Made by a program: the position numbers and the translations under genes. The notes below the pieces were generated by a model. That model saw nothing but the letters and a program-made list of their open reading frames with translations. It was not told the DNA's origin and did not search any database. Source: an archaeon (GTDB lineage: Archaea > Nanobdellota > Nanobdellia > Pacearchaeales > GW2011-AR1). From it: 64,000 bases of DNA. The DNA lies in the NCBI GenBank assembly GCA_018697035.1, contig JABHSE010000004.1, positions 63,122 to 127,121 of the forward strand. Direction: 5' to 3'. Below are positions 9,255 to 60,889 of this stretch, piece by piece (the stretch's first letter is position 1; the number at the start of each line of letters is the position of its first letter).

Positions 9255-9356
9255 AATAAATTTTCTTTTATATACCTTTCTCTATCTCCCTCGACAAAAT
9301 GTAGTCATTATAAAATTACTATAAACCTATAAAAAGAAATTAAGGCAAGTCATAAT

Positions 9357-9974: not shown

Positions 9975-9978
9975 AATC

Positions 9979-18131: not shown

Positions 18132-18292
18132 GCTCCGTTAGTCTAGTGGCCAAGGATGCCGCCCTCTCAAAGAGGTGGAAAGCCCTCGTCGGTGAGACAA
18201 CGGCTTTATGTTCGCTTGAACAACCACTTGAATCTCTCCTGAGATTCTTTTGGAGAACGGCGGTGACCCGGGTTCAAATCCCGGACGGAGCG
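18132..18292 (+). tRNA. tRNA-Glu(CUC) with a roughly 88-nt intron at the canonical anticodon-loop position
   Basis: Hand fold: acceptor GCTCCGT/ACGGAGC, D arm GTCT-AGTGGCCAA-GGAT, anticodon stem CCGCC/GGCGG, loop CTCTCA.., T arm CCGGG-TTCAAAT-CCCGG. The intron is about 18170-18257, with BHB-like pairing CTCT/GGAG. Confidence 0.8.
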
Positions 18293-44987: not shown

Positions 44988-44994
44988 CTAATAT

Positions 44995-45240
44995 AAAAAA
45001 ACCCAATCATCGCAAACCTTTTACTTCACCAGAAGTACCTACTGGGTAAACCAAACCAAAATACGTTTAAAAAAACCCAATCATCGCAAACCTTTTACTT
45101 CACCAGAAGTACCTACTGGGTAAACCAAACCAAAATACGTTTAAAAGAATCCCATCGCAAACCTTTTACTTCACCAGAAGTACCTACTGGGTAAACCAAA
45201 CCAAAATACGTTTAAAAGAATCCCATCGCAAACCTTTTAA
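44995..45240. repeat. 3.3 tandem copies of a 74/71-bp unit immediately upstream of rpo7
   Basis: The phase marker cgcaaaccttttac recurs at 45011, 45085, 45156 and 45227. The last, partial unit ends in aaccttttaaacc, about 20 nt before the ATG. Confidence 0.9.
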
Positions 45241-45262: not shown

Positions 45263-45856
45263 ATGTTCTCTATAGTAAAAGTAACAGATCACGTAAGAGT
45301 CGAACCAAACAAATTCGGCATGGATACAGACGCGGCAGTCAGAGCTCAGTTAGAAGAATCCTACTCTGGTTTCCAAGACAAAGACATTGGAACGGTAGTC
45401 GCAGTTCTCGACGTCAAAGAAGTCAAAGAAGGCATCATAATCCCAGGCGACGGCGCAGCATATTACGAATCAACATTCAAATTAATCGTATTCAGACCAG
45501 AACTACAAGAACTAGTCTACGGAACAATAGAAGAAATCACAAACTTCGGAGCCTTCATATCAATGGGCCCAATCCGAGGCATGATCCACATCTCACAAAC
45601 AATGGACGACTTCGTATCATTCTCAGATTCAGGAGTCCTAACAGGAAAAGACGGGAAAAAGAATCTAGTCCAAGGAGACAAATGTATCGCACGAATCGTG
45701 GCAATATCATACAAAGGTGAGGAACCAAAAATCGGGCTAACAATGAGGCAACCAGGTCTAGGAAAATTAGATTGGATTAAAGCAGAAAAAGAAAAAACAG
45801 ATGCGATTGCAAAACAAGCACTAGCTCTTGAAAACAAAAAGGAGAAGAAGAAATAA
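45263..45856 (+). CDS. rpo7: DNA-directed RNA polymerase subunit Rpo7 (E')
   Basis: Typical N-terminus (V.VEPNKFG) and a C-terminal S1 domain (GAFISMGPIRGMIHISQ). Confidence 0.9.
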   Translation: MFSIVKVTDHVRVEPNKFGMDTDAAVRAQLEESYSGFQDKDIGTVVAVLDVKEVKEGIIIPGDGAAYYESTFKLIVFRPELQELVYGTIEEITNFGAFISMGPIRGMIHISQTMDDFVSFSDSGVLTGKDGKKNLVQGDKCIARIVAISYKGEEPKIGLTMRQPGLGKLDWIKAEKEKTDAIAKQALALENKKEKKK

Positions 45857-46056
45857 TGGTATCGAAAGCAAACAAAGAAAAATCATGTCTAAACTGTAGA
45901 GCAATCTACTTCGGAGACAAATGTCCAAAATGCGGCGAGACTCCAGCCAGCGATTCCTTTAAGGGCAGAATTCATATCTTCAATGCAGAAAAATCCGAAC
46001 TAGCAGAAAATATGGGAATTCCAAAAGAAGGCGAATTTGCAATCAAATCAAAATAA
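45856..46056 (+). CDS. spt4: transcription elongation factor Spt4 (RpoE'')
   Basis: Zn ribbon CLNC...CPKC, followed by the ...SELAENMGI..GEFAIK tail. Confidence 0.8.
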   Translation: MVSKANKEKSCLNCRAIYFGDKCPKCGETPASDSFKGRIHIFNAEKSELAENMGIPKEGEFAIKSK

Positions 46057-46057
46057 T

Positions 46058-46519
46058 ATGGAAATCAAAACAATCAAACAAACAAAAAACCCCTTCATGA
46101 AAAGGGAAGAATTAACTCTAGAAATAACTTCCGAATCAGTTCCAAGCACCTCAGAGGTAATCTCAAAATTAGGAAAAGACGAAGCATTAACAGTAATAAA
46201 AAAAATCAACACAAACTTCGGAAGACAAACATTTCTAACAGAAGTAGTTGTATACGACAACATAGAGGCAAGAAAAAAGATAGAAACTATCCCACAAAAA
46301 ATAAGAAAAAAAATGGCAGCTGAAGAAAAAGCAGCAGCTGAAGAGGCAAAAAAGAAAGCAGATGCAGAAATAAAAGAAGCAGATGCAGCAGCCGAAGCAG
46401 CTAAACAGGAAGCCGAAGCTCCAGTAGCAGAAGAGAATCCAGTTGAAGAAGTTAAAGATGAGGAGAAAGGGTCTGCCCCAACCGATAATAAAGATAAATC
46501 TGTGAGGGTAACTGAATAA
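46058..46519 (+). CDS. rps24e: ribosomal protein eS24 with Ala/Glu-rich C-terminal extension
   Basis: MEIKTIKQTKNPFMKREELTLEI...NTNFGRQTF...VYDN matches the S24e pattern. The start is taken at the second Met. Confidence 0.8.
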   Translation: MEIKTIKQTKNPFMKREELTLEITSESVPSTSEVISKLGKDEALTVIKKINTNFGRQTFLTEVVVYDNIEARKKIETIPQKIRKKMAAEEKAAAEEAKKKADAEIKEADAAAEAAKQEAEAPVAEENPVEEVKDEEKGSAPTDNKDKSVRVTE

Positions 46520-46755
46520 TGGCAATTAAGAGTAAAATCAAAGGAAAGAAGAAACACACAAACAAACCAACTTCTGTAAAATACAAAAAGTATACAATAG
46601 AAGGCGACAAAATCGTAAAGAAAGCACGAAGCTGCCCAAGATGCGGACCAGGAATTTTTTTGTCAGTCGGAAAAGGTCGAGCATATTGTGGAAAATGCCA
46701 CTTTACAGAATTCGACAAAAAAGAAGTAGAGCTGAAATTAGAAGCTAAAGAATAA
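46519..46755 (+). CDS. rps27ae: ribosomal protein S27ae-type zinc-ribbon protein
   Basis: CPRCGPG.F......YCGKC zinc ribbon in a K-rich 78-aa protein. Confidence 0.85.
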   Translation: MAIKSKIKGKKKHTNKPTSVKYKKYTIEGDKIVKKARSCPRCGPGIFLSVGKGRAYCGKCHFTEFDKKEVELKLEAKE

Positions 46756-47111
46756 TTTTATAAGAATTTATCATATCTAACCATGTGTCACTCGCCAATT
46801 ACAACATACCGAAAACTTTAAATAGTATTGTATGTTAGTTATATTATCACCTCTTTTTCCCCAGGAGATGACAATGAGGCTACTAATTTTTTGCTTTATT
46901 GTCGCTCCTAGGGTTTATACTTTATTAAAGTGAAGATCCATATAAGACCTGAGATGAACAGTTTGTTCGAGGCAGTGGATTTATTTTTTCTTAGAAGTAA
47001 TATCTCTACAACAAAGCAAACCAACCCTACAAAACCAAATCCACGTCATCCGCGTGCCATTATTTTCTAAACTCCAACAAAACTTATTAACCCAAGACTC
47101 TAAATAAATTC

Positions 47112-47912
47112 ATGATAGGTGATGACAAAATAAACCAAAATCAGTTCTTCAACCTAATCTCATCCAACGAACTCTCCTGGCAATCCATCATCTACGACCT
47201 CATCAAAACAGAACAACTCGACCCCTGGGACATCAACCTCGCAACCCTAGCCGAAAAATACGTCGCAACAATCCAACAGCTAGAAGAAGCCGATTTCTTC
47301 ATCTCATCAAAAATATTACTTGCATGTTCCTTATTACTAAGACTAAAATCCGAAATCCTAATCAACTCCTACATCCAAGACCTCAACGACGCCCTCTACG
47401 GCAAGAAAGATGAAAAACGCTACGAACTAGAACGAATCGAAATAGACGAAAACGACCTTCCAATCCTAAGCCCCAAAACCCCAATGGCACGTCACAAAAA
47501 AGTCACACTCCAAGAACTAATCAAAGCACTCGACCACGCAATCAACACCGAGTCAAGAAGAATCCGAAAAGAAATCCATGGACGCCAAGCACGAAAAAGC
47601 ATGCTCACAGTAATGCCAAAAGACAATTTCATTCCACTCAAAGTCAGAATCAAATCAATCTTCGGAATCGTAAAAACTCATCTAAATGATAACGACCACA
47701 TGAAGTTCCACCACATGGCACAATCAAAAGAAGAACAACTAGCCTCCTTTGTCCCAATACTTCACCTCTCAAACAACGGCAAAATATTCCTCCGACAACC
47801 AAAACACTTCGACCATATCCACATGACACTAGATTTACACAAAGAGGAAAAAATTGAGTTAGAAGAAGAGTTAGGTATTTTAAAAGACGAAATAATAGAA
47901 ACCCAACAATAG
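47112..47912 (+). CDS. scpA: segregation and condensation protein A
   Basis: WDINLATLAEKY...EADFFISSKILLACSLLLRLKS is typical of ScpA/kleisin. Confidence 0.75.
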   Translation: MIGDDKINQNQFFNLISSNELSWQSIIYDLIKTEQLDPWDINLATLAEKYVATIQQLEEADFFISSKILLACSLLLRLKSEILINSYIQDLNDALYGKKDEKRYELERIEIDENDLPILSPKTPMARHKKVTLQELIKALDHAINTESRRIRKEIHGRQARKSMLTVMPKDNFIPLKVRIKSIFGIVKTHLNDNDHMKFHHMAQSKEEQLASFVPILHLSNNGKIFLRQPKHFDHIHMTLDLHKEEKIELEEELGILKDEIIETQQ

Positions 47913-47953
47913 GCTTATATATTTCTTAAACTTAATAACAACAGAGGTGAAAA

Positions 47954-48190
47954 ATGAAAAAACAAGTAACCGAAAAATTAGCAGCTCTAATAACAGCCGC
48001 TTTTGGATTGGTAGCAGCTTTAGCATGGAATGACGCAATCAAAGCATTATTCGTCGGCCCGTGCGGATCAGACAATGCAGGAGCACTCTGTTCGCTATCT
48101 TCTGGAGGACCATGGGTTTACGCAGTCTTTGTAACAGCTCTCGCGGTATTCGCAACAATCTGGATTGCTAAAGTAGCCGAAAAGAAATAA
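47954..48190 (+). CDS. small membrane protein (DUF5654-like)
   Basis: 78 aa, two TM segments, AAFGLVAALAWNDAIKALF. Confidence 0.45.
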   Translation: MKKQVTEKLAALITAAFGLVAALAWNDAIKALFVGPCGSDNAGALCSLSSGGPWVYAVFVTALAVFATIWIAKVAEKK

Positions 48191-48205: not shown

Positions 48206-49366
48206 TTATTTTTTATTTTTTTCCAAAATCTCTTTTTGAGAAAACATCTCCTCAACCCCACTCCCCATATCCCGAACCTTAAACTCACCCTTAGCAACCT
48301 CATCCGCCCCAACAAAAACAACCTTCCCAATCCCTTTAGAATCAGCATACTCCAATCCCTTCCCAATCGCCTTATCCATCAACAACACCGTCCGAATTCC
48401 CTCTCCCCTCAACCTCTCCGCCAAATCAACCGCCTCCACATCACAACCAAGCGACAAAACCAAAACATCAACAGCACTCCCTTCAATTTTCGACAACAAA
48501 CTAATCGGCTCAAACCCAAGCGCAATACCAAAAGCCTGAACATCATCAACCATATAAGCCCCACCTCCAGCAAGAGAAACCCCCAACTCATCACTCCAAA
48601 TCTCAACCACAGTCCCATTATAATACGAAAGTCCCCTAGCCAAAAAAGGCCGAAACTCCGGCGTCACACCATACATCTTACAAAGCTTCTTCAACTCTTT
48701 AATTTCACCATAAAACTTATACTTCTCAAAATCCTTCCCAGTGAAAATCTTCAACACCCTCTCGCAACCAATGCTCTTCAAATTATCAGCAACATCCTTC
48801 ACCGACAACTTATCCAACTTATCAATCTCACGAATCGCCTGATCTCTAACTTTCTCATCAACTCCCTCGCTAACCAGAATCTCATTAATCAACCTACGAT
48901 TATTAAAGTAAATCTTAACCGGCATCTCAAGCTTCTCAAAAATACCAGACATCATCTTCAAACACTCAGCCTCATCCTTCATGCTCGAACCAACAACATC
49001 CGCATCCGCCTGAGTAAACTCCCGACTCCTCCCTTTCCGAATCGCCTCATCTCGAAAAACACTTCCAATCTGAAACCTCTTATACGGCAACTTCTGATTC
49101 TTCGCCAACCTCTTCAACTGAAACGTAAACTCAAACCTCAACGCCAACTTCCGCTTTCCCCTATCACTCAAACGGAAAACATCCCGAACAGCCTCGTCGT
49201 TAGCATTATCCCCAACAACAAAATCCTCTCTCTCAATAATCGGGCTCTCCGCAATCTCAAAACCATAAGTCTCAAACTCTCTCTGAATAATCCCCCGAAT
49301 CACCGCACGCTTCGCCGCCTCAGCCCCGACAAATTCATTAAACCCCTTAACTATTCTCGAACTCAT
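48206..49366 (-). CDS. HisRS paralog 1 (class II HisRS fold plus anticodon-binding domain; motif 3 Arg not conserved)
   Basis: FRDEAIRKGRSREFTQADADVVG (motif 2), ARGLSYYNG, GGGAY, but GIALGFEPI where HisRS normally has G.GleR. Confidence 0.8.
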   Translation of the reverse strand: MSSRIVKGFNEFVGAEAAKRAVIRGIIQREFETYGFEIAESPIIEREDFVVGDNANDEAVRDVFRLSDRGKRKLALRFEFTFQLKRLAKNQKLPYKRFQIGSVFRDEAIRKGRSREFTQADADVVGSSMKDEAECLKMMSGIFEKLEMPVKIYFNNRRLINEILVSEGVDEKVRDQAIREIDKLDKLSVKDVADNLKSIGCERVLKIFTGKDFEKYKFYGEIKELKKLCKMYGVTPEFRPFLARGLSYYNGTVVEIWSDELGVSLAGGGAYMVDDVQAFGIALGFEPISLLSKIEGSAVDVLVLSLGCDVEAVDLAERLRGEGIRTVLLMDKAIGKGLEYADSKGIGKVVFVGADEVAKGEFKVRDMGSGVEEMFSQKEILEKNKK

Positions 49367-49636
49367 CTACTTCCTCCCTTTCTCAAGTTTAATAATTCTC
49401 CGCTTCAACTTCTCAATCTCAACCTTATTATTAATATCAAAAACCCACTCAATAAACAAAACTCCAGGAAAAACAATCACGAGAGTAAATATTAGTCCAC
49501 TCAAAGTCAGCCTCCGAACTTCCTCAAAAGCCAAGTCGAAAAATATCCCATGAATAATAGCCCCAACCGAAACCAATACAGAAAAAACCAACAATATCAA
49601 AATCTGCTTCCTCATTAAACCAATCGATTTAACCAT
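49367..49636 (-). CDS. small membrane protein
   Basis: 89-aa ORF with two TM segments. Confidence 0.45.
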   Translation of the reverse strand: MVKSIGLMRKQILILLVFSVLVSVGAIIHGIFFDLAFEEVRRLTLSGLIFTLVIVFPGVLFIEWVFDINNKVEIEKLKRRIIKLEKGRK

Positions 49637-50177
49637 TTCGCTCTCCCAAATACTCCTTCAACTTCCCAAATGCAATCTTCCTCATACTAAACTCATTCTT
49701 CTTCTCCAAACTCATCTCCCCAAAAGTCTTATCACTTCCCTCAGGCAAAAACATCTTATCCCAACCAAAACCGTTCTCTCCCCGAGGCGCAACAATATCT
49801 CCTTTAACATTCCCTTCAAAAAACACAACACTATCCCCATCACTATACCCAATCAAAGTCTTAGCAACAGCCGACCCATCATCATATCTACCAACCAAAT
49901 CCGCAATTCCCTCAACCTTCAAACTATCTAAAAACCATTTAATCAAAGGCCCAGGCAAACCATTCAAACAATTAATATAAACCGAAGTATCCTCAACAAT
50001 AAACTCGCCCTTATTATGCTTCAAAGCCTCATCCAACTTAGCCTCAATAATCTTCCTAGCATCAATCTCCTGAATCTCTGGCAAATCCAAATCAATCTGC
50101 TCCACATTATCAATAATACTCCGCGCCTCTAAAAACTTCCCCTCATTCCCAGTTATAAAATAAAGTTTCTTCCCCAT
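49629..50177 (-). CDS. non-canonical purine NTP pyrophosphatase (HAM1/RdgB/ITPase)
   Basis: YFITGNEGKF..E, ...EDTS..., FGWD motifs. Confidence 0.85.
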   Translation of the reverse strand: MGKKLYFITGNEGKFLEARSIIDNVEQIDLDLPEIQEIDARKIIEAKLDEALKHNKGEFIVEDTSVYINCLNGLPGPLIKWFLDSLKVEGIADLVGRYDDGSAVAKTLIGYSDGDSVVFFEGNVKGDIVAPRGENGFGWDKMFLPEGSDKTFGEMSLEKKNEFSMRKIAFGKLKEYLGERNG

Positions 50178-50257
50178 GCAACATCAAAAAAACCACACTT
50201 TAAATCATTTACCCAAACACCCTTAAACCAAAACCAACAACCAATCTAGCCGCCCGC

Positions 50258-50316
50258 GGATTATATTGCTAATGCGCGATATAATCCAACAGCTTTGCAG
50301 GGATTAATTTCCCTGC
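50258..50316. other. two adjacent strong hairpins upstream of tRNA-His
   Basis: GGATTATAT-12nt-ATATAATCC (50258-50287) and TGCAGGGA-loop-TCCCTGCA (50296-50316). Confidence 0.6.
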
Positions 50317-50382
50317 ATTATACTCTTTCAATAAATTTAAAAGACAAAACCTCATTCCTATATTACCACATTTGGTAACAAT

Positions 50383-50454
50383 GACGGTTGTAGTTCAATG
50401 GTAGAATGTATGGTTGTGGTCCATGAGACGCGGGTTCGATTCCCGCCTTCCGTC
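50383..50454 (+). tRNA. tRNA-His(GUG) copy 1, with encoded G-1
   Basis: G-ACGGTTG-TA-GTTC-AATGGTA-GAAT-G-TATGG-TTGTGGT-CCATG-AGAC-GCGGG-TTCGATT-CCCGC-CTTCCGT-C. T-T oppositions at 5:68 and 6:67. Confidence 0.8.
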
Positions 50455-50534
50455 CTTTTTCTAGAATTGAATGAAGTTCGATTGAAGACATTTCAATGTC
50501 GAATGCCCGCAGGCCAAGCCTTCCGTCTAAAACC

Positions 50535-51221
50535 CTAAGCAGGTTCGTATCCCAACATCTCTTTTGCCTTAGAAATATCTATACTATCTAATTCGTCAGC
50601 AATATTGAATGTCTCATACCAAAAAATATCCCTACTCCTAATGGACTTTTCGATTCCCTGAATTGCATTATTCATACTAACCCTGGTACCATAAGGACCG
50701 TCTTCGTCCGCAATTCTTGGAAACCTCAATATTGTAATAGGTATCTTTTTAGCTAATCCATAAAATGCTAAGATATTTTCCGCTATAATTTTACTTTCAG
50801 GATAAGCCAAGCTTCCATCGCCACATTCAATATCATCAACCTTTAGATACATTGGAAATATTTTATTATTCTCTCTAAGGGGAAGCCTTACTGGAATACC
50901 CACCTCTGCACCATAGTAAGCAGTAGAACTAATATATATTAATTTTTTAACCCTATTCTCAACACAAGCATTAACCACATTCAAAGTTCCAATACAATTA
51001 TTCGAAAAATAATCATCAAATGTTTTCGTATTATCAGGTTTGGGAATCGCAGCAGCATGAACAACAATATCGCAAGTTTTCATCGAGTTTGACAATCTTT
51101 CATAATCTAATATATCGTCCCCATTCGTGACATCATACTCAATTATTCGATTATCACCACCTATTTTATCAACCAACGATTTACCAAGATATCCCCTGCT
51201 TCCAGTTACAAATATTTTCAT
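50535..51221 (-). CDS. NAD-dependent epimerase/dehydratase (short SDR)
   Basis: IFVTGSRGYLG Rossmann motif and YPESK (YxxxK). Confidence 0.75.
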   Translation of the reverse strand: MKIFVTGSRGYLGKSLVDKIGGDNRIIEYDVTNGDDILDYERLSNSMKTCDIVVHAAAIPKPDNTKTFDDYFSNNCIGTLNVVNACVENRVKKLIYISSTAYYGAEVGIPVRLPLRENNKIFPMYLKVDDIECGDGSLAYPESKIIAENILAFYGLAKKIPITILRFPRIADEDGPYGTRVSMNNAIQGIEKSIRSRDIFWYETFNIADELDSIDISKAKEMLGYEPA

Positions 51222-51361
51222 TTTCTATTAATCATATTACAGATATTATAAATTTTTCTCATTCAGATGTATCGTAACTTTATTTATTATAGAATGAAAA
51301 TTAAAAAAATAAAGCCGGAGATTTCTCCCCAACGGCCAATAAAAAAAATTTATGCAAAAGA

Positions 51362-51685
51362 TTAAGCCGTCTCTTCAGGAGTCTCAGCTTCAACCGCAGG
51401 TGCAGCCTCAACCGGAGCCTCTTCAGATTCAACCTCAGCTGGTGCTTCTTCAGCAACAGGAGCTTCCGCTTCAACAGCAGGGGCTTCCGCAACCTCAGGA
51501 ACAGCTTCTTCAGCTACAGGAGCTTCAACTTCAGCAGGGGCTTCTTCTACAGGAGCCTCAACCTCAGGAGCAGCTTCTTCTTCAGCAGCAGGTTCCTCAG
51601 CAGCTTCTTCTACAGGAGATTCCACAGATTCCACAACAGGTGCGTCCTCAATAGTCTCCTCAGGAGTTACGTTTTCTTCTTCCAT
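51362..51685 (-). CDS. low-complexity acidic E/A/P/V-rich protein (uncertain)
   Basis: 107-aa ORF. The region is open in several frames on both strands, so coding status is unclear. Confidence 0.3.
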   Translation of the reverse strand: MEEENVTPEETIEDAPVVESVESPVEEAAEEPAAEEEAAPEVEAPVEEAPAEVEAPVAEEAVPEVAEAPAVEAEAPVAEEAPAEVESEEAPVEAAPAVEAETPEETA

Positions 51686-51731
51686 AATTCCTCAATCCAA
51701 AAATTCTTTATAAAGATTTAGGTATCACAAC

Positions 51732-52142
51732 TCAGGGACATCGCACATAAAATAACTTACCCGCAGGAGCCGTCAAATAACACTCATGCTTCTCATAACT
51801 TCTCATATGCGGCACATACTCATAATAGCTCCCCTTTAAACCAGATCTCAACCCTTTCTGATATTTCAAATCATGACCTCTTGCAAAATTCCTCGACCTC
51901 TCAAACCTATCACCACGAGAAAACACATCCTCATGCTTCTCCTCAAAATAATCCCGTGTCGTCCGATAACTATACCCATGCCGATAATCATAAGTCGAAT
52001 GTCGGTCATCATTATCATAATCAATCTCAATAATCCGCGTCTCCACAAACCTTTCTTTGTAACCAACATCATGCGCCGAAACGAAACCAACACACAAAAC
52101 CAACAACAAAACAATATACCTATTCATAATATAACAAGTCAT
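51732..52142 (-). CDS. small secreted protein
   Basis: Signal-like LLLVLCVGFVSA; 136 aa. Confidence 0.45.
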   Translation of the reverse strand: MTCYIMNRYIVLLLVLCVGFVSAHDVGYKERFVETRIIEIDYDNDDRHSTYDYRHGYSYRTTRDYFEEKHEDVFSRGDRFERSRNFARGHDLKYQKGLRSGLKGSYYEYVPHMRSYEKHECYLTAPAGKLFYVRCP

Positions 52143-52175
52143 CTAATCCTTTTAAAAATTATTATACTCTACCCA

Positions 52176-53162
52176 CTAAATCAACTTCCGAACCCGCTCA
52201 ACCAAATCCGGCCTAACATAATAATGCAACGTCACATCAGACGAATTCTCCCATTCACCCTTAACGATTTTCTTATGCCCCAACTTCTCCGCCAACCCCA
52301 AACAAAACACTCCAACATTGCCCTTATTCTTCTTAGCCAAAAACTTCTCGACCTCTCTAGTCGCAAAATGCGACCGAACAATATGCGGATAAAACCTCTC
52401 CCCACAAAACCTCTCAAATCCAGCCTCAAACTCAACATCCCCAAAAGGTCTCCCCTTACTATTCAAAAAAACAAAATCATCCATCTTCCTCTTGCCCAAA
52501 ACTCGTTTCAACTCAGAAACAACCCTCTCTCCAAAAATCTCTTCAATAACCTGCGGAACCCCATCCTTCCCAATAAAACTAAACCGAACCTTCTTTCCAC
52601 TAATCTGAATATCTTTTTTCTTAAGAGTAGTCAATCCCTTATGTCTACTCCTCTTATAGTAAACCTCACTCCCAACCCTCATCTTCGTCTTAAGCAAAAC
52701 CAACATTGCAAGAACTAACTCACTCGTTCCAAGCGCCTTCATTAAATTTCGGCGAAGCCTAGGTAAACATTTCTCAAAATCATCAACCAACTTAAACTTC
52801 TTATCTTTAGAGATCTTCATCTTATCCAAACTATAAATATAACAAAGACTACCACTGGGATTCTCAAAAATAACGTCCCAATGTCCATGCGACTTCTCAT
52901 CATGAATTGCCAACTTAGAAGCAAACAAAGGAAACGCCTTGTTTAACTTCGTGCCATCGGGCAAAATCCCAATTCTTTTTCCAATACTCCTCCCCTTGCA
53001 AAATCCCCCCATCAAAAAATCTCCATCTCGAATCATCTTCAAATTCCCATGCTTCTTAAAAAGTTGAGCAACAGTCATAGCCTCCGGAAATTTAACCTTA
53101 GATTTCCGACCTCTTTCATCAACAACAGCCAAATCAGAAAACCGAATCCTATAACACCTCAT
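52176..53162 (-). CDS. type IB DNA topoisomerase (small poxvirus/bacterial-like form)
   Basis: MRVGSEVY...GLTTLKKKDI...V.FSFIGKDGV, IVRSHFAT, LGH, and a C-terminal ..TLHYYV candidate catalytic Tyr. Confidence 0.65.
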   Translation of the reverse strand: MRCYRIRFSDLAVVDERGRKSKVKFPEAMTVAQLFKKHGNLKMIRDGDFLMGGFCKGRSIGKRIGILPDGTKLNKAFPLFASKLAIHDEKSHGHWDVIFENPSGSLCYIYSLDKMKISKDKKFKLVDDFEKCLPRLRRNLMKALGTSELVLAMLVLLKTKMRVGSEVYYKRSRHKGLTTLKKKDIQISGKKVRFSFIGKDGVPQVIEEIFGERVVSELKRVLGKRKMDDFVFLNSKGRPFGDVEFEAGFERFCGERFYPHIVRSHFATREVEKFLAKKNKGNVGVFCLGLAEKLGHKKIVKGEWENSSDVTLHYYVRPDLVERVRKLI

Positions 53163-53206
53163 AAAAAACTAGTCGTCGATAAGCTATATAAAATTTTCCA
53201 AAGAGA

Positions 53207-53593
53207 CTAACTAGGAATATTAATTCCTCTTTCGACCATGATTTTTGCTTCCGGATTCTTAGCACTTATACGATCCATATATCCTGCTAATGTAGATTTT
53301 ACCCCTGCATCTACTTTAGAAAAAAGCATATCAGAATCAATCTTGAACTCATTAAAATACATATCATGATACCCAGCAGTGTTCTGCTTAACATGCAATT
53401 CAAAAACTCCACATTCTTCAGACTTCTCTCCAAATATCTTCACTGCGTAAGAAACACCATCAGAACCATGCGTTCCCCCAGTAATTTTCACTTCTTTAAT
53501 TTTCTTCTCCAATACTCCTTCCAAAATTTTTTCAGGCAAAGATACATCATAACTCCTTTCCACCAATAAACGATAAGCATTATTTCTTTCCAT
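53207..53593 (-). CDS. hypothetical protein
   Basis: 128-aa ORF. Confidence 0.45.
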   Translation of the reverse strand: MERNNAYRLLVERSYDVSLPEKILEGVLEKKIKEVKITGGTHGSDGVSYAVKIFGEKSEECGVFELHVKQNTAGYHDMYFNEFKIDSDMLFSKVDAGVKSTLAGYMDRISAKNPEAKIMVERGINIPS

Positions 53594-53651
53594 TAAAACT
53601 ACATCTCCCTCCCACCTTTTAACATTTTATATCATCTAGTCTCTATATTAA

Positions 53652-54038
53652 CTACAAATAATCTAACCCATCCCGTGCAATCTTCCTATAAAAACAAGAC
53701 TCCCTATGCTTACCCAACTCATCCACCGTATGACAGGCCCCATCTCCCTCAGAAGTAACCTGATAAACCAAGGCATCCTGATCGCAATCAACTAAGATAT
53801 TCTCAATCCTCAATTTATTCCCAGAATTCTCCCCCTTCGTCCAAAGTTTATTCTTCGAAGTACTCCAGAAAGTAGCATAATTTGTCTGAATAGTTTTATC
53901 CAAAGCCTCTCTATTCGCATACGCCAACATTAGAATATCCTTTGATCCACTATCCTGAGTAATCACTGGCACAAGCCCACCCCTTTTCTCAAATTGAATT
54001 ATTCTCTCGCAAGTTTGTTCTAATTTTTTAATATCCAT
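53652..54038 (-). CDS. hisI: phosphoribosyl-AMP cyclohydrolase
   Basis: GLVPVITQD...MLAYANREAL...FWSTSKNKLWTKGENSGN...DCDQDALVYQV...GACHT. Confidence 0.8.
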   Translation of the reverse strand: MDIKKLEQTCERIIQFEKRGGLVPVITQDSGSKDILMLAYANREALDKTIQTNYATFWSTSKNKLWTKGENSGNKLRIENILVDCDQDALVYQVTSEGDGACHTVDELGKHRESCFYRKIARDGLDYL

Positions 54039-54059
54039 TTTAAATAAGAAATCTCAACT

Positions 54060-55241
54060 CTAATGATAATGAGGATGCTCAGAAGTCTCTGCACATTTAT
54101 CATTCACAACATCCATCTCCAAAACACTCTCGTCCCCACTAACCATATCCTTCACCTTAAACACCCCACTCTCAACTTCCTGTTTCCCAACAAAAACCAC
54201 CTTCCCAAACTCATACGCATTAGCATACCCAAGCGCCTTACTAGGTTTACCATAATTCACAGAAACAATCTTACCCTGCTCCCTAAGTTTTTGAGCCAAT
54301 TTAATAGCAACATCATCTTCTCCCAAAGACACAATCAAAAATTTATCTTGAACACTCTTGAGCTTAGCAATCAAAAACAACCTATCCAATCCCATAGAAA
54401 TTCCCGTACACTGAACGTCGTTGAAAATATAACTTCCACCTCCAGTAATCGTTTCCTTAATACCCTCACCCTTAATCTCAAACACAGAACCGTTATAATA
54501 ACTAAGTCCCCTAATCGTCGTCGGTGAAAAAACAATCCGAAGCCCATACTTCTTACAATAATTAATCAACTCAAGCACTTCTTTATACGACTCAAATTTT
54601 TCAAAGTAATCTTCACCCTCATTAAACCTATCAATAATTCCCTCAACCCCAAAAGGCCTAAGGTTATCCCGCAACTCATCCTCAGGCAATTTATCAAACT
54701 TATCAATCTCACGCATAACCTGGTCCCTGTCTTTATCATCCACACCAAAGTCTTCCAAGATTTCATTCATAAGTTTACGGTTATTAATCAGCACAGTCGG
54801 AGTAATTCCAATACCCCTCAAAATCTCAGACACAACCACAAGAGTCTCAGCCTCGTCCTTAACAGTAGAACCCACAGTATCAATATCACACTGCACAAAC
54901 TGCCTAACCCGATTCCCCGAAACTGGCTCATCTCTAAAGACCGGTCCAACAGCAAACCTCTTGTAAGGAAGTTTCTTTCCCTGCATCAATCGCTTTAAAG
55001 GAAAAGTCATTTCATATCTAAGCGCCAAGTCCCTATCTCCCTTATCCTTCAATCTAAAAATATCCGAAACCGCTTCATCATCAGTATTATCTCCCTGAAC
55101 AAACTGCCTACTTTCAATTATAGGAGTGTCCACAGGAGAATACCCATACCTAGTAAAAGTATCAACAATAATTTTCCTTATAGCCTCTCGCTTAATCGCA
55201 TCTTCGCCTTCATAATCCTTAAATCCCTTAACAGTATCCAT
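54060..55241 (-). CDS. hisS: histidine--tRNA ligase (paralog 2; start trimmed to MDTVKGF)
   Basis: Motif 2 FRDEPVSGNRVRQFVQCDIDTVG, IRGLSYYNG, GGGSY, motif 3 GISMGLDRL, and an anticodon-binding domain. The track N-terminal extension overlaps a tRNA. Confidence 0.85.
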   Translation of the reverse strand: MDTVKGFKDYEGEDAIKREAIRKIIVDTFTRYGYSPVDTPIIESRQFVQGDNTDDEAVSDIFRLKDKGDRDLALRYEMTFPLKRLMQGKKLPYKRFAVGPVFRDEPVSGNRVRQFVQCDIDTVGSTVKDEAETLVVVSEILRGIGITPTVLINNRKLMNEILEDFGVDDKDRDQVMREIDKFDKLPEDELRDNLRPFGVEGIIDRFNEGEDYFEKFESYKEVLELINYCKKYGLRIVFSPTTIRGLSYYNGSVFEIKGEGIKETITGGGSYIFNDVQCTGISMGLDRLFLIAKLKSVQDKFLIVSLGEDDVAIKLAQKLREQGKIVSVNYGKPSKALGYANAYEFGKVVFVGKQEVESGVFKVKDMVSGDESVLEMDVVNDKCAETSEHPHYH

Positions 55242-55253
55242 CTTGTCCTCCAA

Positions 55254-55326
55254 GGCGGAAGGCGGGAATCGAACCCACATTATACGGACCACAACCATAT
55301 GTACTAACCATTATACTACAACCGCC
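55254..55326 (-). tRNA. tRNA-His(GUG) copy 2, with encoded G-1, 12 nt upstream of hisS
   Basis: Reverse complement: G-GCGGTTG-TA-GTAT-AATGGTTA-GTAC-A-TATGG-TTGTGGT-CCGTA-TAAT-GTGGG-TTCGATT-CCCGC-CTTCCGC-C. Confidence 0.8.
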
Positions 55327-55478: not shown

Positions 55479-56009
55479 TTATTCCCTAAAAAGAGATAGG
55501 ATTCTTTCAGGATCTACTCTATAAGGACTTCCCTTCCCTTCAAAAAAATAATGGTCCCTAATCAAATGTGGAATCAACCCAGAAACCTGTATAGGATTTT
55601 TACAATCACGCATTTCTCCAGGATAGAAAGGCTTACCATCATCAGGCATCAACCACATCACACTTGCCTTATCGGTATAGTCATCACCCCAAGGACAATT
55701 TTGTTCCCCACAGGTAAATTCTGTTACAATCTTAAAACTTCCTTGACGAAAAAATTCTTGCCCATGACCCATAATCATAGATTCCAACTTATCCGCAACT
55801 TGCTCATATGTCAAGTTGAGTTTTTTAAGCGTCGCAAAATCACCGAGCACAACCTCCTCAAAAGATTCATCTCCTCTAAGAAATCCATCTGATGAACCAT
55901 AAACACTTCCCGTAGGCTTCAGAAGCTTTTCCAATTGAACAAGTTTTTCACCAAGAGGAATAGACGCCAAAACTTTTTCATAAAGAGTGTCATAATCCAC
56001 ATTATTCAT
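55479..56009 (-). CDS. hypothetical protein
   Basis: 176-aa ORF. Confidence 0.5.
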   Translation of the reverse strand: MNNVDYDTLYEKVLASIPLGEKLVQLEKLLKPTGSVYGSSDGFLRGDESFEEVVLGDFATLKKLNLTYEQVADKLESMIMGHGQEFFRQGSFKIVTEFTCGEQNCPWGDDYTDKASVMWLMPDDGKPFYPGEMRDCKNPIQVSGLIPHLIRDHYFFEGKGSPYRVDPERILSLFRE

Positions 56010-56010
56010 T

Positions 56011-57111
56011 TTAACTAGTCATCAATTTATAGTAAATATCGTTAAATATTTCTAAGTCTTTTTTATTTACACTTTCATCAGATGTATGACATTGGTCTGA
56101 CTGCCCAGGCCCAAAGATTACCGCTTCTCCCCACTTCGAAAAAAGAGCAGCCTCTGTCCATCCATATTTAACTCCCATATCTACAGAAGGCACAATCCCC
56201 TTCAGCTGCGAAATAAATAAACCATCTCTATCTGTTCCAAAAGAATCTCCCCAAAAAATCGGATTACATTTGGAGTCAGCACAAATATCCAACGCCATTT
56301 TTTTTATCATTCCATACTCATCTTGAATATCCTGAGACGGCACCAACCTCTGACTCGTTCTAATCAAACATTTATCCGCAACAACATTAGCCCCCTCCCC
56401 TCCACGAATCATTCCAATATTCATAGTAGAACATCCAAGCAAAGGATCCCTCTCACTCTCGACCTCCTTCCCATACTCAATCACTCTTCGACAAAATTCC
56501 GCGGCCTTATAGATAGCATTATATTTATCATTATAATCAAAATCCGCCTTAGAAGAATGTGCTGCAAAGCCACCAAACTCAGTCTCCAAATCCAAACATC
56601 CCTTCTGCGCATATATAATCTTCCCATTCGTCGGCTCAGCAACAACAACCCTCGCATTCTTCAAATCAAAATCCTTTATCAATTGCTCACCACCCTTAAG
56701 CGAACCCTCTTCATCCGCAGTAAAAATTAAATAAACATCCTGCTTCGGCTTTTCATCCAAAGAAAGAGCAGCGCTAATCATACATGCCAAACCAGCCTTC
56801 ATATCGCTACTTCCCAATCCATATATCTTCCCATCTTGCTCCAAGGGCTCAAACGGATTCTTAGTCCACCCAGAAGAAACAGGAACACTATCAGTATGCC
56901 CAGTAAGAACTAAGGGCGAATCAAATTTTTCCCCAGGAATCCTAACGACCAAATTATACAAGTCAAACTCGTCCCCAATATCCCTAAATCTAAACCTCTG
57001 TGTCTCAAACCTAGCCAACTTATCCTCGATATAATCAACTATTTCCTTATTTGACTTCGTACACTGAGAGTCAATCCTAATTAAATCTTTCAAGATGGTT
57101 ATTTGATTCAT
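56011..57111 (-). CDS. M20 family metallopeptidase/deacylase (ArgE/DapE/carnosinase-like)
   Basis: LTGHTDSVP, GSSDMKAG and FTADEEG metal-ligand motifs. Confidence 0.8.
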   Translation of the reverse strand: MNQITILKDLIRIDSQCTKSNKEIVDYIEDKLARFETQRFRFRDIGDEFDLYNLVVRIPGEKFDSPLVLTGHTDSVPVSSGWTKNPFEPLEQDGKIYGLGSSDMKAGLACMISAALSLDEKPKQDVYLIFTADEEGSLKGGEQLIKDFDLKNARVVVAEPTNGKIIYAQKGCLDLETEFGGFAAHSSKADFDYNDKYNAIYKAAEFCRRVIEYGKEVESERDPLLGCSTMNIGMIRGGEGANVVADKCLIRTSQRLVPSQDIQDEYGMIKKMALDICADSKCNPIFWGDSFGTDRDGLFISQLKGIVPSVDMGVKYGWTEAALFSKWGEAVIFGPGQSDQCHTSDESVNKKDLEIFNDIYYKLMTS

Positions 57112-57113
57112 CC

Positions 57114-57890
57114 TTACTTCCCCAATCTATCCATGACTTTAGTTAAGTATTCCTGATCAAGATTTTTTATATCCCATCCAAACCATTTGCTATTTCGTTC
57201 AGGATCTTTAAATAAATCTCTTGGTGGTTTACCCGATAGTGTCTTAGACGTAATGATACCCATTGCAGGATTGATTGTTCTATTCACAAAATGTTCAAAA
57301 TTCCTTTTTGCAGCTTTTTCTAATCTTTTTGCAACCAAAACCGAGCCTAATCCCCTATTTTGATAAGAATCTATAATTCCCGACTCCGCACCATAAAAAG
57401 TTTTATTTGGAACAAACCCTTCATTGTTTAATAGATCTTTAACTTTTGGAAAATTAACACTAGTTGTTTTTTTATCAGGTACCATATATCCCCAACTAAA
57501 ACCAATAGGACGATTTTCATCATACAACATAAAACCCTCAAATCCTTCCTTATCTAAAGCTTCATCAATTAATTCCTGATGATTAACAAAGTTTGGGTAG
57601 AAATCAACTAGCTCTAAAGGTTTTTCACATTCAACGCAAGAATCCAGTCCCCCTTTGGGTAGCAAAAAAACATCATTCCTCAAAGTATATCCATTCCTAC
57701 AATCATTAACGACCTTCTGTTCTTTATTTAAGTCGTATCTTTCACACAATTCAGAAGCATAAGGTGTTCCACAATTATCACATGCTAAATCTTCATGCCA
57801 AGGATGTCCGCTAAAAACTTCTTTATATACACTTGCCAACGATCCAATATTTTTACCCTCTATATTCCTTAAATGTAACTTATTTTTCAT
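57114..57890 (-). CDS. GNAT-like acetyltransferase with Cys-rich N-terminal insert (putative)
   Basis: YQNRGLGSVLVAKRL resembles the GNAT acetyl-CoA motif A. CDNC...CVEC are possible Zn ligands. Confidence 0.5.
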   Translation of the reverse strand: MKNKLHLRNIEGKNIGSLASVYKEVFSGHPWHEDLACDNCGTPYASELCERYDLNKEQKVVNDCRNGYTLRNDVFLLPKGGLDSCVECEKPLELVDFYPNFVNHQELIDEALDKEGFEGFMLYDENRPIGFSWGYMVPDKKTTSVNFPKVKDLLNNEGFVPNKTFYGAESGIIDSYQNRGLGSVLVAKRLEKAAKRNFEHFVNRTINPAMGIITSKTLSGKPPRDLFKDPERNSKWFGWDIKNLDQEYLTKVMDRLGK

Positions 57891-57892
57891 TT

Positions 57893-59407
57893 TTATATAT
57901 CTAATTTAACCCCCCTTTCAATAATATCTAATATTTCATTATTCCTTATTAAACTATTGATTTTCGCTAAATCAATTCTAAACTCCCTGTCGTTATCGAT
58001 ATAAGGACTTACCTCTCGAATTTTATTATGCACCAATTGAGCAATCATACTTCCCTCTTCAATATTTCTTAATTCCAACGCCTGAACCGAACACATATAC
58101 AAAATAGAAATTATTTCTTCCACATTATGGATTATATCTCTCGCCTTCCTTGCACCTATAGTTCCCATACTCACGTGATCCTCCTGATTTGCACAAGTAG
58201 GAATAGAATCCACGCTCGACGGATGCGCCAACACCTTATTCTCAGAAACCAATGCAGCCGCGACATATTGAGGAATCATCAATCCACTATTCAATCCACT
58301 TTCTTTTACTAGAAACGCCGGAAGGCCTTCATTCAAATTAGGATCAAGCATTCTAAAAATAATCCTCTCAGAAAGATTACCTAATTCACTTATTGCAATA
58401 CCCAAGAAGTCGGCGACTAGCGCTATTGGCTGCCCATGAAAGTTTGCGCCAGAAATTGCCTTTCCCTCAAAAATCAAAGGATTATCTGTTGCAGAATTTA
58501 TTTCCGTTTCCACAACTCCCTTAATATATTTAACAGAATCCAACGATGCGCCAATAATTTGTGGCAATGCCCTAAGGCTATAAGCGTCCTGCACCTTCGT
58601 CGTCGAATCAATCAATTTACTCCCTTCAATCAATTTGGAAATAATAGACGCACATCTTCCCTGCCCAAAATGAGGTCTCGCCAAATGAATATTCTCATTC
58701 AAAGCAACACTACAACCCTTCAATGATTCCAAACTCAACGAACTCGCGATAAGAGTATTCTTAATCAAATTCTCAGAATCATGTATATTAAGAGCCATTA
58801 TAGCAGTCATCACCGTCGTCCCATTATTCAAAGCCAAGCCTTCCTTAAAGCTCAATTTTATAGGAGAGAGCCCTGCATACAAAAGTGCCTCCTTTCCCGA
58901 CATACGCTGACCATTAAACATCGCCTCTCCTCTACCAATCATTACCAGAACCATATGTGAGAGAGGAGCAAGATCCCCACTAGCACCAACAGACCCCTTC
59001 TCAGGAATAATTGGATGAACACCCCTATTCAACATATCAACCAACAACTGCACCGTACTCAGACGTATACCAGAAAATCCCTTAACAAAAGTATTAATCC
59101 TAATCAACATAACAGCCCGAACAATGTCCTCAGACAGAGGCTCACCAACCCCAACCGCATGACTCTTAATCAAATTCTCCTGAAGCTTCTCCACATCTTC
59201 CAACGGAATCGAAACATTAGACAAAGAGCCAAAACCCGTAGTCAAACCATAAACAGATTCTCCTTCAGAAATCATAGTTTCAACATAATTTCGAGAACGA
59301 TTAATTTTACCAACAGATTCCTCTGGAAGCTCAACGACATAATTATTTCTAGAAACATCAACAACGTCTTTTACTGAAAGATTTAATCCGTTTAACTGGA
59401 CTTTCAT
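57893..59407 (-). CDS. hutH: histidine ammonia-lyase (MIO enzyme)
   Basis: GSVGASGDLAPLSH contains the Ala-Ser-Gly MIO-forming triad. About 504 aa. Confidence 0.85.
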   Translation of the reverse strand: MKVQLNGLNLSVKDVVDVSRNNYVVELPEESVGKINRSRNYVETMISEGESVYGLTTGFGSLSNVSIPLEDVEKLQENLIKSHAVGVGEPLSEDIVRAVMLIRINTFVKGFSGIRLSTVQLLVDMLNRGVHPIIPEKGSVGASGDLAPLSHMVLVMIGRGEAMFNGQRMSGKEALLYAGLSPIKLSFKEGLALNNGTTVMTAIMALNIHDSENLIKNTLIASSLSLESLKGCSVALNENIHLARPHFGQGRCASIISKLIEGSKLIDSTTKVQDAYSLRALPQIIGASLDSVKYIKGVVETEINSATDNPLIFEGKAISGANFHGQPIALVADFLGIAISELGNLSERIIFRMLDPNLNEGLPAFLVKESGLNSGLMIPQYVAAALVSENKVLAHPSSVDSIPTCANQEDHVSMGTIGARKARDIIHNVEEIISILYMCSVQALELRNIEEGSMIAQLVHNKIREVSPYIDNDREFRIDLAKINSLIRNNEILDIIERGVKLDI

Positions 59408-59656: not shown

Positions 59657-60889
59657 ATGGGAATTAATGATATTACTAAAAATGAAAATGAATGGAGAAA
59701 GTTAAAAGAAAATAATTATAATTTAAAAAATCTAAATCAAAAAAATAGATCGATAACTTCAGATTTTCTAAAAGATTTTGAACTTGGAATCAACACTCCA
59801 CCAAAAAAACGGGGAGCAAGAAAACCCGGAACGCTTTTGAAATTGAGATATTTTCTTGTTTCTCTAAACAGGCACTTTCCTAAAAAAACATTTATTAATT
59901 TAACAAAAGACGATTTACATTCGTTATGTGAAAACATGTTTCAAGGCACAATAAAGACGTGTAACGGAAGAATCTACAAAGATGTTGGAGAAGTTGTGAA
60001 AAATCTTAAAACTTTTTTCAGATGGGCGGAAAGAACCTCTAACATAAATGAAAGCATAGTAGAAGACTTGTCAGCCGCTTCTTATAAAAGGTCTAAGCCT
60101 GCCTGGACTTATCTTGAGCATGCCGATATAAAGAAATTAATTGATAGTGCAAATGCCACATATAAGCCTCTTATGGTTTTCCTCTATGATTCAGGTTTGC
60201 GTCCAGAAGAGGCCATCAGAATAAAAGTGAGTGATTTCGAATTTTCTTCCGATGGCCCAGCAATCTTAAACATTCCAGAAATTCGAGGAAGTGGCATGAG
60301 AGTTTCTAAAACATTTGAGAGGACGATCAAATTGATGAACAGTTCAAATCAAATCAAAAATTATATAGAACTTAATGGATTAAAGTCCAATGATTTACTA
60401 ATTCAAAAAAGAAGATTGATGTTTAATAGATATCTTAAAAGATTGGCCTTAAAATTATTTGGCAATATGAAGACAAAAGCCAGGGGCGAAATTAAAGATA
60501 TCAATATGTACGCATTTAGACATTGGTCTTCGATTTATTGGTTAGATCGATATAAGACAAATAAAGATTTGATGTATAGAATGGGTTGGAAGAACGAGAA
60601 TAAAATCCTTTATTATTCAGAATTTTTAGGAAGAAGAGATAAAATTGACGATGAGGATATGCTTACAATCGAGGATAAGAACAAGTATGAAAAAGATATA
60701 GAAAAGTTGGAAAAACAAGAAATTCAAAATTTTGAATTGCTTAAAAAACTCTCTGCCATCACCCAAGTGCTACTGAAAGCGGCTATGGAAGATGAAACCA
60801 CAAAAGAAAGTTTGAAGAAACAGCTTATCAGGATTACCCTTGAGGGAGCTGAAACAAATCACTTGCAAGTGATTTCCCCTCCTCATTAA
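59657..60889 (+). CDS. tyrosine recombinase / phage-type integrase
   Basis: GLRPEEAIRIKVSDF (Arg I region), YAFRHWSSIYWL (R-H box), MGWKN..ILYY (candidate catalytic Tyr). Confidence 0.8.
   Translation: MGINDITKNENEWRKLKENNYNLKNLNQKNRSITSDFLKDFELGINTPPKKRGARKPGTLLKLRYFLVSLNRHFPKKTFINLTKDDLHSLCENMFQGTIKTCNGRIYKDVGEVVKNLKTFFRWAERTSNINESIVEDLSAASYKRSKPAWTYLEHADIKKLIDSANATYKPLMVFLYDSGLRPEEAIRIKVSDFEFSSDGPAILNIPEIRGSGMRVSKTFERTIKLMNSSNQIKNYIELNGLKSNDLLIQKRRLMFNRYLKRLALKLFGNMKTKARGEIKDINMYAFRHWSSIYWLDRYKTNKDLMYRMGWKNENKILYYSEFLGRRDKIDDEDMLTIEDKNKYEKDIEKLEKQEIQNFELLKKLSAITQVLLKAAMEDETTKESLKKQLIRITLEGAETNHLQVISPPH

Follow-up and report, generated by a model that had tools for sequence, protein, structure and literature searches.

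We report two complete pairs of genes for histidine tRNA (tRNA-His) and histidyl-tRNA synthetase (HisRS) in a 64,000-nucleotide stretch of archaeal DNA (contig JABHSE010000004.1 of assembly GCA_018697035.1, positions 63,122 to 127,121), referred to below as the window. Module 1 is composed of tRNA-His1 (50383..50454, plus strand) and HisRS1 (48206..49366, minus strand), and module 2 of tRNA-His2 (55254..55326, minus strand) and HisRS2 (54060..55241, minus strand). The interpretation that we favour, with a probability of roughly 0.7, is that module 2 is a tRNA-His-hisS cassette that was acquired horizontally as one piece of DNA and added to the native pair; the event looks like ordinary gene transfer rather than the emergence of a new coding system. 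The organism would be a DPANN archaeon of the Pacearchaeota/Woesearchaeota type with its own tRNA-His1 and HisRS1 at the ancestral locus, and the tRNA-His2-HisRS2 cassette would derive from a distant relative within the same radiation. The two enzymes differ in motif 3, which reads GFEPI in HisRS1 (with Pro287) and has the canonical form GLDRL in HisRS2; the corresponding groups of homologs are called P-type and R-type hereafter.

Module 1 at the locus of the single HisRS of related archaea

HisRS1 (386 amino acids) lies at the locus that, in about 80 related Pacearchaeota/Woesearchaeota genomes, holds their single HisRS. The relatives considered here are 80 loci from 80 different GTDB assemblies (the best loci, P-type and R-type together) and the contexts of eight further homologs. 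The neighbourhood of the single HisRS is alike in both clades, with a type IB topoisomerase (TopoIB), orf136 and tRNA-His upstream, and with ScpA, S27ae, S24e and Spt4 downstream and convergent with hisS wherever these flanks are present. In the window, the downstream anchor is formed by the genes for Spt4, S24e, S27ae, ScpA and a DUF5654 protein (45856..48190, plus strand), and the TopoIB-like gene at 52176-53162 (minus strand) is the syntenic anchor on the other side, as it is upstream of the HisRS locus of the relatives. Two further partners of the native locus, orf89 (49367-49636, minus strand) and a Ham1/ITPase gene recognised by Pfam (49629-50177, minus strand), lie between tRNA-His1 and HisRS1, and HisRS1 is flanked by orf89, Ham1 and DUF5654 as in its closest relatives. 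Homologs of orf89 are found directly upstream of the P-type HisRS at L001, L005, L013, L017, L020 and L022, and homologs of Ham1 at the loci L007, L021 and L023.

In a database search, the relatives of HisRS1 reach 80% identity, and the identity of HisRS1 tracks that of the neighbouring ScpA (ScpA identities of 74-80% correspond to HisRS1 identities of 64-69%). The gene for tRNA-His1 matches the tRNA-His of L005, the nearest relative locus, at 100% identity and those of other close relatives at 93-97%. Since HisRS1 stands at the single-HisRS locus of the relatives and tRNA-His1 is identical to its counterpart in L005, module 1 is, as judged from synteny and sequence comparison, the native pair. 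No second HisRS was found within 10 kb at any of the 80 GTDB loci or in the eight further contexts, and none of the 80 assemblies contributes two loci.

The window also encodes a low-complexity, acidic protein with a high content of E, A and P (51362-51685, minus strand), whose gene is built of degenerate repeats of 15-21 nt. Its position after orf136 is conserved in relatives (L005, 4749-5159; L037, 5144-5455).

Module 2 resembles the pair of a distant lineage

The phylogeny of the HisRS copies was computed by neighbour-joining (NJ). In a 59-taxon subsample, HisRS2 fell inside a group made up entirely of R-type enzymes and excluding HisRS1 in 100 of 100 bootstraps. At the loci with the highest identity to HisRS2 (57-60%), ScpA is only 46-49% identical to that of the window, so that HisRS2 is more similar to the enzymes of distant lineages than to those of near ones. 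Among 5.8 billion proteins, HisRS2 had no ortholog above 64% identity, whereas the relatives of HisRS1 reach 80%. The tRNA behaves in the same way: the best matches of tRNA-His2 (85%) are the tRNA-His genes that adjoin the closest homologs of HisRS2 (L099 and L100). Neither HisRS2 nor the neighbouring gene hisI is present upstream of TopoIB at L005. A horizontally acquired second set, one of the possibilities raised by the sequence-only reading, is thus supported, as HisRS2 and tRNA-His2 both group with another lineage and are lacking in close relatives. A recent duplication in situ is ruled out by the 47% identity of the two copies and by the position of HisRS2 in another clade.

The layout of module 2 is that of an ordinary hisS gene of this radiation. 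Upstream data covered 74 relative loci; in 57 of these, tRNA-His precedes hisS on the same strand, at a distance of 150 nt or less in 19 cases, and since tRNA-His normally lies just upstream of hisS, a single transferred fragment would carry both the tRNA and its enzyme. It had been observed that each tRNA of the window is the nearest one to one of the synthetase genes; this is correct, and it reflects the lineage-wide arrangement. In module 2, the C73 of tRNA-His2 is followed by a 12-nt spacer, TTGGAGGACAAG (55242..55253, minus strand), which holds a GGAGG ribosome-binding site, and then by the ATG of HisRS2. The two genes would be co-transcribed, and cleavage at the 3' end of the tRNA would leave an mRNA with a 12-nt leader containing GGAGG.

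The insertion point of the cassette would lie some 2.8 kb upstream of the native tRNA gene, at a variable spot adjoining a tyrosine recombinase, and the same spot would also have gathered histidine-related genes, namely a Bacteroidota-like hisI and genes for HutH, a deacylase and a GNAT protein. The recombinase/integrase gene (59657..60889, plus strand) borders the accessory block, and the G+C content drops to 0.31-0.34 to its right. Because L005 and L037 carry homologous integrases directly upstream of TopoIB, the insertion spot is a variable, recombinase-associated site.

Between TopoIB and HisRS2 lie orf128 (53207-53593, minus strand), with no function assigned, and hisI (53652..54038, minus strand), which starts 21 nt downstream of HisRS2 and encodes a standalone phosphoribosyl-AMP cyclohydrolase of 128 amino acids. 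Outside the same species, its best homologs are standalone enzymes of the same kind that are 54-66% identical, and the named ones belong to marine Bacteroidota; with the HisI part of the HisG-I-E fusion that Pacearchaeota encode at L037, it shares no more than 38% identity. From these comparisons, HisI looks bacterial and Bacteroidota-like. One match at 98% (P0241) evidently comes from the same species; it is labelled Peregrinibacteria and is probably a mis-binned contig of 2.6 kb. Upstream of tRNA-His2 lies a tightly packed accessory operon of four genes (55479..59407, minus strand) encoding the histidine ammonia-lyase HutH (57893-59407), a GNAT-like protein of 258 amino acids (57114-57890), an M20 deacylase of the ArgE/DapE family (56011-57111) and orf176 (55479-56009). 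The relatives lack these genes at the corresponding position, save for one homolog of the GNAT-like protein in L036.

Several points weigh against an acquisition of module 2 by transfer. The HisRS trees were built by NJ and not by maximum likelihood. No known donor is closer than 64% for the protein or 85% for the tRNA. The HisRS2 segment has the G+C content of the genome (0.38), with no compositional anomaly, and no relative was found on viral contigs (IMG/VR). With regard to a tRNA-targeting integrative element, the integrase is present and att direct repeats are not: no att-like partial tRNA repeat flanks the accessory block, and when either half of tRNA-His2 is compared with the window, tRNA-His1 is the only further match, and its orientation is inverted. 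Finally, the view that HisRS is single-copy elsewhere is deduced from windows of +/-10 kb around the relatives' genes, from the presence of one locus per assembly in the top 80 and from the lack of close HisRS2 orthologs, and for the present organism 64 kb of the genome were read. P0104/P0240 seemed to represent another genome in which one contig carries the two types; this candidate was discarded, as the two entries come from different samples.

Both modules belong to one archaeal genome

Within the assembly collection, 29 blocks contain the exact HisRS1 protein and 40 contain orf176, and HisRS2 is present in every context that holds orf176, which adjoins it. Across both modules, the window is reproduced at 100% identity by at least 20 contigs of several independent assemblies (ENA and JGI), which rules out an assembly chimera. 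The sequence-only reading had listed a pseudogene, contamination or a chimeric assembly as outcomes that would overturn it; the reading frames are intact and the independent assemblies agree. A pseudogene is also excluded by the presence of the family-invariant residues in both enzymes and by the stem changes checked in tRNA-His2, which still pair. The ends or starts of several independent contigs from this species fall within 51955-52393 of the window (the 3' region of orf136/TopoIB). A variant lacking the island was considered for this cluster and ruled out, since partner contigs of the same samples end at the matching place; the cluster is an assembly break.

The window encodes the archaeal proteins Spt4, S24e and S27ae and an intron-containing tRNA, and the bins that contain the close homologs are all labelled Pacearchaeota, Woesearchaeota or Nanoarchaeota. 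Of the contigs with HisRS1, the longest measures 783,805 bp.

Two full-length histidyl-tRNA synthetases

The two HisRS had been described as full-length paralogs, related and diverged, and this description stands: they are 47% identical over 380 amino acids (E 1e-112), both domains are present in each, and the peptides that had been quoted for them are found in the sequence. Pfam detects the catalytic domain PF13393 (tRNA-synt_His; E 8e-28 in HisRS1 and 3e-31 in HisRS2) and the anticodon-binding domain PF03129 (HGTP_anticodon; 40 and 25.8 bits for a cutoff of 21). The best NCBIfam family for both is TIGR00442 (hisS), with 222.7 bits for HisRS1 and 248.9 bits for HisRS2, scores that lie below the trusted cutoff of 286.75 bits. 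The HisZ model TIGR00443 gives 100.8 and 123.6 bits against a cutoff of 271.65.

All residues that are invariant across 112 sequences of the family are kept in both copies; they include E79, T81, R105, E107, R113, R115, D121, D123, R244, Y248, Y249, G268 and G269. The catalytic residues of motif 2 (FRxE...RxRxFxQxDxD), of the LR[YF]E.T histidine-site motif (general form LR[PY]ExT) and of HisA (RGLxYY) are thus present in both enzymes. Both proteins are short (386 and 393 amino acids), and the loop after HisB is shortened or missing, a trait of both clades. The HisB motif itself reads GGG[SA]Y in both copies and both clades instead of GGRYD, with Ala or Ser in place of Arg (compare AAGGRYD in the human enzyme). 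The HisB deviation and the loop loss are a trait of the whole radiation and not tied to one paralog. The AlphaFold model of HisRS1 is confident (pLDDT 90.2, pTM 0.86); each of the 50 structural matches listed is a HisRS, and the TM-score to the Thermoplasma enzyme (1wu7) is 0.88.

The mechanically defined open reading frame of HisRS2 reaches position 55298 (412 amino acids) and overlaps tRNA-His2, and automatic gene calls give 412 or 397 amino acids, with a start inside the tRNA gene. The fit of homologous N-termini and the GGAGG located 5 nt upstream of the ATG at 55241 support this ATG as the probable true start, giving a protein of 393 amino acids. The 412-residue gene call wrongly includes translated tRNA sequence. 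The names of the family are a second problem of annotation, as database entries are called HisS or HisZ inconsistently and many are automatically named 'ATP phosphoribosyltransferase regulatory subunit'.

Two tRNA-His genes with the same identity elements

ARAGORN predicts four tRNAs in the window, of which two are tRNA-His(GTG), at 50384-50455(+) and 55253-55326(-). The Rfam tRNA model scores 59.2 bits for tRNA-His1 and 52.8 bits for tRNA-His2 (gathering score 29). Both genes were also read directly in the sequence, and the boundaries that had been proposed for them are exact when G-1 and C73 are included. Folding of tRNA-His2 by minimum free energy yields a cloverleaf; the thermodynamic z-scores of both tRNAs are unremarkable, and the covariance-model scores are the relevant evidence.

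Both genes encode G-1 opposite C73 and a GUG anticodon, do not encode CCA, and have U5.U68 and U6.U67 mismatches. They are 81% identical, with 14 positions different, and the acceptor end differs only at 1:72, which is A1:U72 in tRNA-His1 and G1:C72 in tRNA-His2. The stem differences (1:72, D stem, anticodon stem and 50:64), checked by eye in the sequence and in the Rfam alignment, preserve pairing: from tRNA-His1 to tRNA-His2, 1:72 goes from A-U to G-C, 12:23 from U-A to A-U, 10:25 from G.U to G-C, 27:43 from U.G to U-A and 50:64 from C-G to U.G. In about 65 related loci, tRNAs with A1:U72 and with G1:C72 are each found with both enzyme types, and the 1:72 pair is uncorrelated with the P or R state. 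The known identity set of HisRS consists of G-1:C73 and the GUG anticodon. Since these elements are the same in the two tRNAs, both enzymes would be able to charge both of them.

Across the same loci, the U6.U67 mismatch, often together with U5.U68, is a near-universal feature of the tRNA-His acceptor stem, and G-1 is encoded in all tRNA-His genes examined. In a few lineages, mostly R-type, C73 is replaced by U73 (L052, L053, L061, L063, L067, L077, L084, L099 and L100).

P-type and R-type HisRS

Class II synthetases have an invariant arginine in motif 3 (G.G.G.eR), which sits at the ATP-binding motif. Pro287 of HisRS1 aligns with this arginine in the HisRS chain 6nhi. Database searches with HisRS1 and with HisRS2 produced hit lists that share no entries: motif 3 is G[FL]EP[IL] in all of the 120 best matches of HisRS1 and GL[DE]R[IL] in all matches of HisRS2 in which it could be recognised. 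An alignment of 321 sequences contains 171 P-type and 149 R-type enzymes, with Pro in all 171 of the former. The P-type comprises HisRS1 of the window and 171 homologs (P0002-P0120, L005-L062).

The P/R state covaries perfectly or nearly so with several other positions (HisRS1 numbering). Position 61 is R in 171 of 171 P-type sequences and S in 149 of 149 R-type sequences; position 110, in the motif 2 loop, is R/K in the P-type and S/T in the R-type; position 112 is G in the former and N in the latter; position 239 is R/K in 168 of 171 P-type enzymes and not basic in 148 of 149 R-type enzymes; W at position 257 and N/G/D at position 262 in the P-type correspond to K/R at both in the R-type. 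The P-type has thus gained basic residues at 61, 110 and 239 and lost them at 257, 262 and 287. This covariation indicates that the P-type is a coherent remodelled subfamily and not a decaying gene; a relocation of the arginine is an idea suggested by covariation only. The P-type appears to be the sole HisRS at the housekeeping locus of its genomes (a second copy was looked for within 10 kb). If the P-type enzyme is active, a textbook 'invariant' residue would be dispensable once others have been relocated. Our literature searches returned nothing specific on a HisRS lacking the motif 3 arginine.

It is possible, though unlikely in our estimation, that the two pairs are not redundant. The P-type HisRS would then be a previously undescribed active-site variant of class II synthetases, widespread in Pacearchaeota, with an altered handling of ATP or altered regulation, possibly involving a HisZ-like moonlighting function tied to adjacent HisG-(I)-E proteins, and the imported canonical R-type pair would have been retained for something that the P-type cannot do. 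Should this be true, the genome would be the one natural system that allows a comparison, within a single cell, of the two types with their tRNAs.

Functional state of the two enzymes and a possible link to HisG

The branch of HisRS2 is accelerated, with distances to outgroups of 0.54-0.585, whereas its sisters show 0.42-0.46 (standard deviation 0.03-0.04). At sites conserved to 90% or more within its clade, the enzyme carries 13 deviations (sampled clade members: median 3.5, maximum 13), among them F78M and Q81P inside the LRYEFTFQ histidine-site motif. HisRS1 evolves at a near-normal rate, with 8 deviations. On the basis of these rates, we take HisRS1 to be the probable housekeeping enzyme, and HisRS2 would be an accessory or partly redundant copy on which constraint has relaxed or shifted.

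A HisZ-like regulatory paralog, another suggestion of the sequence-only reading, is not supported for either copy, as the anticodon-binding domain and the catalytic residues checked (motif 2, HisA and LR[YF]E.T) are kept, with the exception of the motif 3 arginine of HisRS1, and the HisZ model scores fall far short of its cutoff. A tblastn search of the 64-kb window with a Pacearchaeota HisG-I-E fusion found neither hisG nor hisE. In some relatives, a short-form HisG fused to HisE, with or without HisI, is encoded directly upstream of the sole HisRS (L024, L034, L035, L037, L063, L069 and L084; the fusion of L037 lies at 8818-10005). In bacteria, short-form HisG needs HisZ. By analogy, and given that HisG-(I)-E adjoins the sole HisRS, HisRS may double as the partner of HisG in some DPANN archaea; we regard this question as the most interesting lead provided by the locus.

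Alternative explanations

An ancestor might have possessed a P-type and an R-type HisRS, each with its tRNA-His, through an ancient tandem duplication followed by differential loss, with the present species keeping both; the shared syntenic neighbourhood of the two clades, the distance of only about 6 kb between the two copies and the poorly resolved deep branching between clades, with a mixed intermediate group, would fit this scenario. We nevertheless judge it decidedly unlikely, because the type follows the species proxy (ScpA at 46-49% in the R-type loci closest to HisRS2 against 74-80% in P-type relatives), two loci are found in none of the 80 GTDB assemblies and two copies within 10 kb at no locus, close relatives have no HisRS2 ortholog above 64%, and HisRS2 lies outside the conserved block, among foreign-looking genes. 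Quite unlikely, too, is a functional specialisation in which HisRS2, possibly along with tRNA-His2, serves a purpose other than housekeeping that is connected with the histidine genes beside it, for example as a sensor or regulator responding to histidine or uncharged tRNA (following a HisZ- or GCN2-like logic) or as a condition-specific synthetase. The clustering of HisRS2 with HisI, HutH, the deacylase and the GNAT protein, its accelerated branch with the F78M and Q81P replacements, and the link between HisRS and ATP phosphoribosyltransferase hinted at by the HisG-(I)-E genes of relatives speak for such a role. They are opposed by the retention in HisRS2 of the anticodon-binding domain and of the family-invariant residues (motif 2, HisA and the motif 3 arginine), by the lack of hisG and hisE in the window and by its operon-like junction to a well-formed tRNA-His, as for an ordinary hisS in the relatives.

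The proline of HisRS1 at the position of the invariant class II arginine raises the question of whether this enzyme is catalytically weak or inactive, with the imported canonical HisRS2 compensating as the real housekeeping enzyme. This appears very unlikely in view of the strong conservation of the 171 P-type sequences, which stand behind a tRNA-His at the housekeeping locus with no second HisRS within 10 kb; the co-changes R61, R/K110, G112 and R/K239 point to remodelling rather than decay, the accelerated copy is HisRS2 and not HisRS1, and the model of HisRS1 shows a confident full HisRS fold. Least probable of all, and in our view hardly credible, is a pair of naturally orthogonal systems in which each HisRS charges only the adjacent tRNA-His, a possibility that the sequence-only reading had raised. 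In HisRS-tRNA structures, the motif 2 loop contacts the acceptor end, and it is true that the two enzymes differ in this loop and the two tRNAs at 1:72 (A-U or G-C) and at 14 positions overall; however, both tRNAs share G-1:C73 and GUG, either form of the 1:72 pair occurs with both enzyme types among the relatives, and since both tRNAs decode the same codons there would be no coding consequence.

Other features of the window

A tRNA gene with a 90-nt intron (18132-18292, plus strand) was caught by Rfam and missed by ARAGORN. The leucyl-tRNA synthetase (13428-16361, minus strand; 977 amino acids) has an unusual architecture, with a NUDIX domain (amino acids 402-530, E 4e-13) inserted directly past the editing domain. 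The alanyl-tRNA synthetase (10364-12103, plus strand) has only 579 amino acids and stops right after the second additional domain, thus being without the usual C-terminal region. A 74-nt unit is repeated three times in tandem between coding regions (44994-45212), with two identical copies and a third at 86%; BLAST alignments with further assemblies of this species are interrupted or jump ahead inside this array, which suggests that its copy number varies.

Comparison with known systems

HisZ is a HisRS-like protein that serves as a regulatory subunit of the short-form ATP phosphoribosyltransferase (Sissler et al. 1999, cited in PMC9437257); according to the review PMC9437257, it is confined to bacteria. 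A survey of more than 2500 genomes noted HisZ paralogs annotated as ATP phosphoribosyltransferases (PMC5388404), a remark that matches the inconsistent HisS/HisZ naming of the family of HisRS1 and HisRS2. The resemblance to HisZ lies in the homology to the HisRS catalytic domain, in the position of HisRS2 beside the histidine-pathway gene hisI and in the frequent HisZ-like automatic names. Unlike HisZ, both copies retain the anticodon-binding domain and the checked catalytic residues and score far below the cutoff of HisZ hidden Markov models, and the 64-kb window holds no hisG.

Ardell and Andersson in 2006 and Wang et al. in 2007 are said to have described Alphaproteobacteria with a co-evolved atypical HisRS and a tRNA-His lacking G-1. 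Like that system, the P-type is a subfamily of one lineage with a remodelled active-site or acceptor-binding region, here the motif 2 loop and motif 3. The differences are that the tRNA identity set is unchanged (G-1:C73 in all tRNA-His examined except a few with U73) and that the P-type change concerns the motif 3 arginine at the ATP-binding site and not tRNA recognition.

The thrU-tyrU-glyT-thrT-tufB operon of E. coli is the familiar case of tRNA genes co-transcribed with a downstream protein gene. Module 2 shares with it a tRNA located immediately upstream of a reading frame on the same strand and a ribosome-binding site in the 3' trailer of the tRNA. It departs from it in that the protein is the tRNA's own synthetase and that the arrangement is conserved across a DPANN radiation; co-transcription would be expected here from the layout.

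Duplicate synthetases gained by gene transfer are common. Our literature searches for HisRS duplication in DPANN archaea and for synthetase transfer in Pacearchaeota returned nothing specific, and a review of duplicated synthetases lists under HisRS only HisZ and no canonical duplicate (PMC9437257). Module 2 is similar to horizontally acquired auxiliary synthetases (PMC9437257, PMC5388404) in being a second, divergent, full-length and foreign copy of the same specificity, placed in an accessory region beside the native gene. It differs from them in that no inhibitor-resistance or stress rationale is known for HisRS2, in that the donor would be another DPANN archaeon and not a member of a distant phylum, and in that the module brings its own cognate tRNA gene in an operon-like arrangement with a 12-nt spacer. 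A full-length second HisRS arriving with its own tRNA-His in a DPANN genome of about 0.8 Mb is not among the documented cases (PMC9437257), and it would imply that the tRNA-His-hisS cassette conserved in these archaea is able to pass between lineages as a unit.

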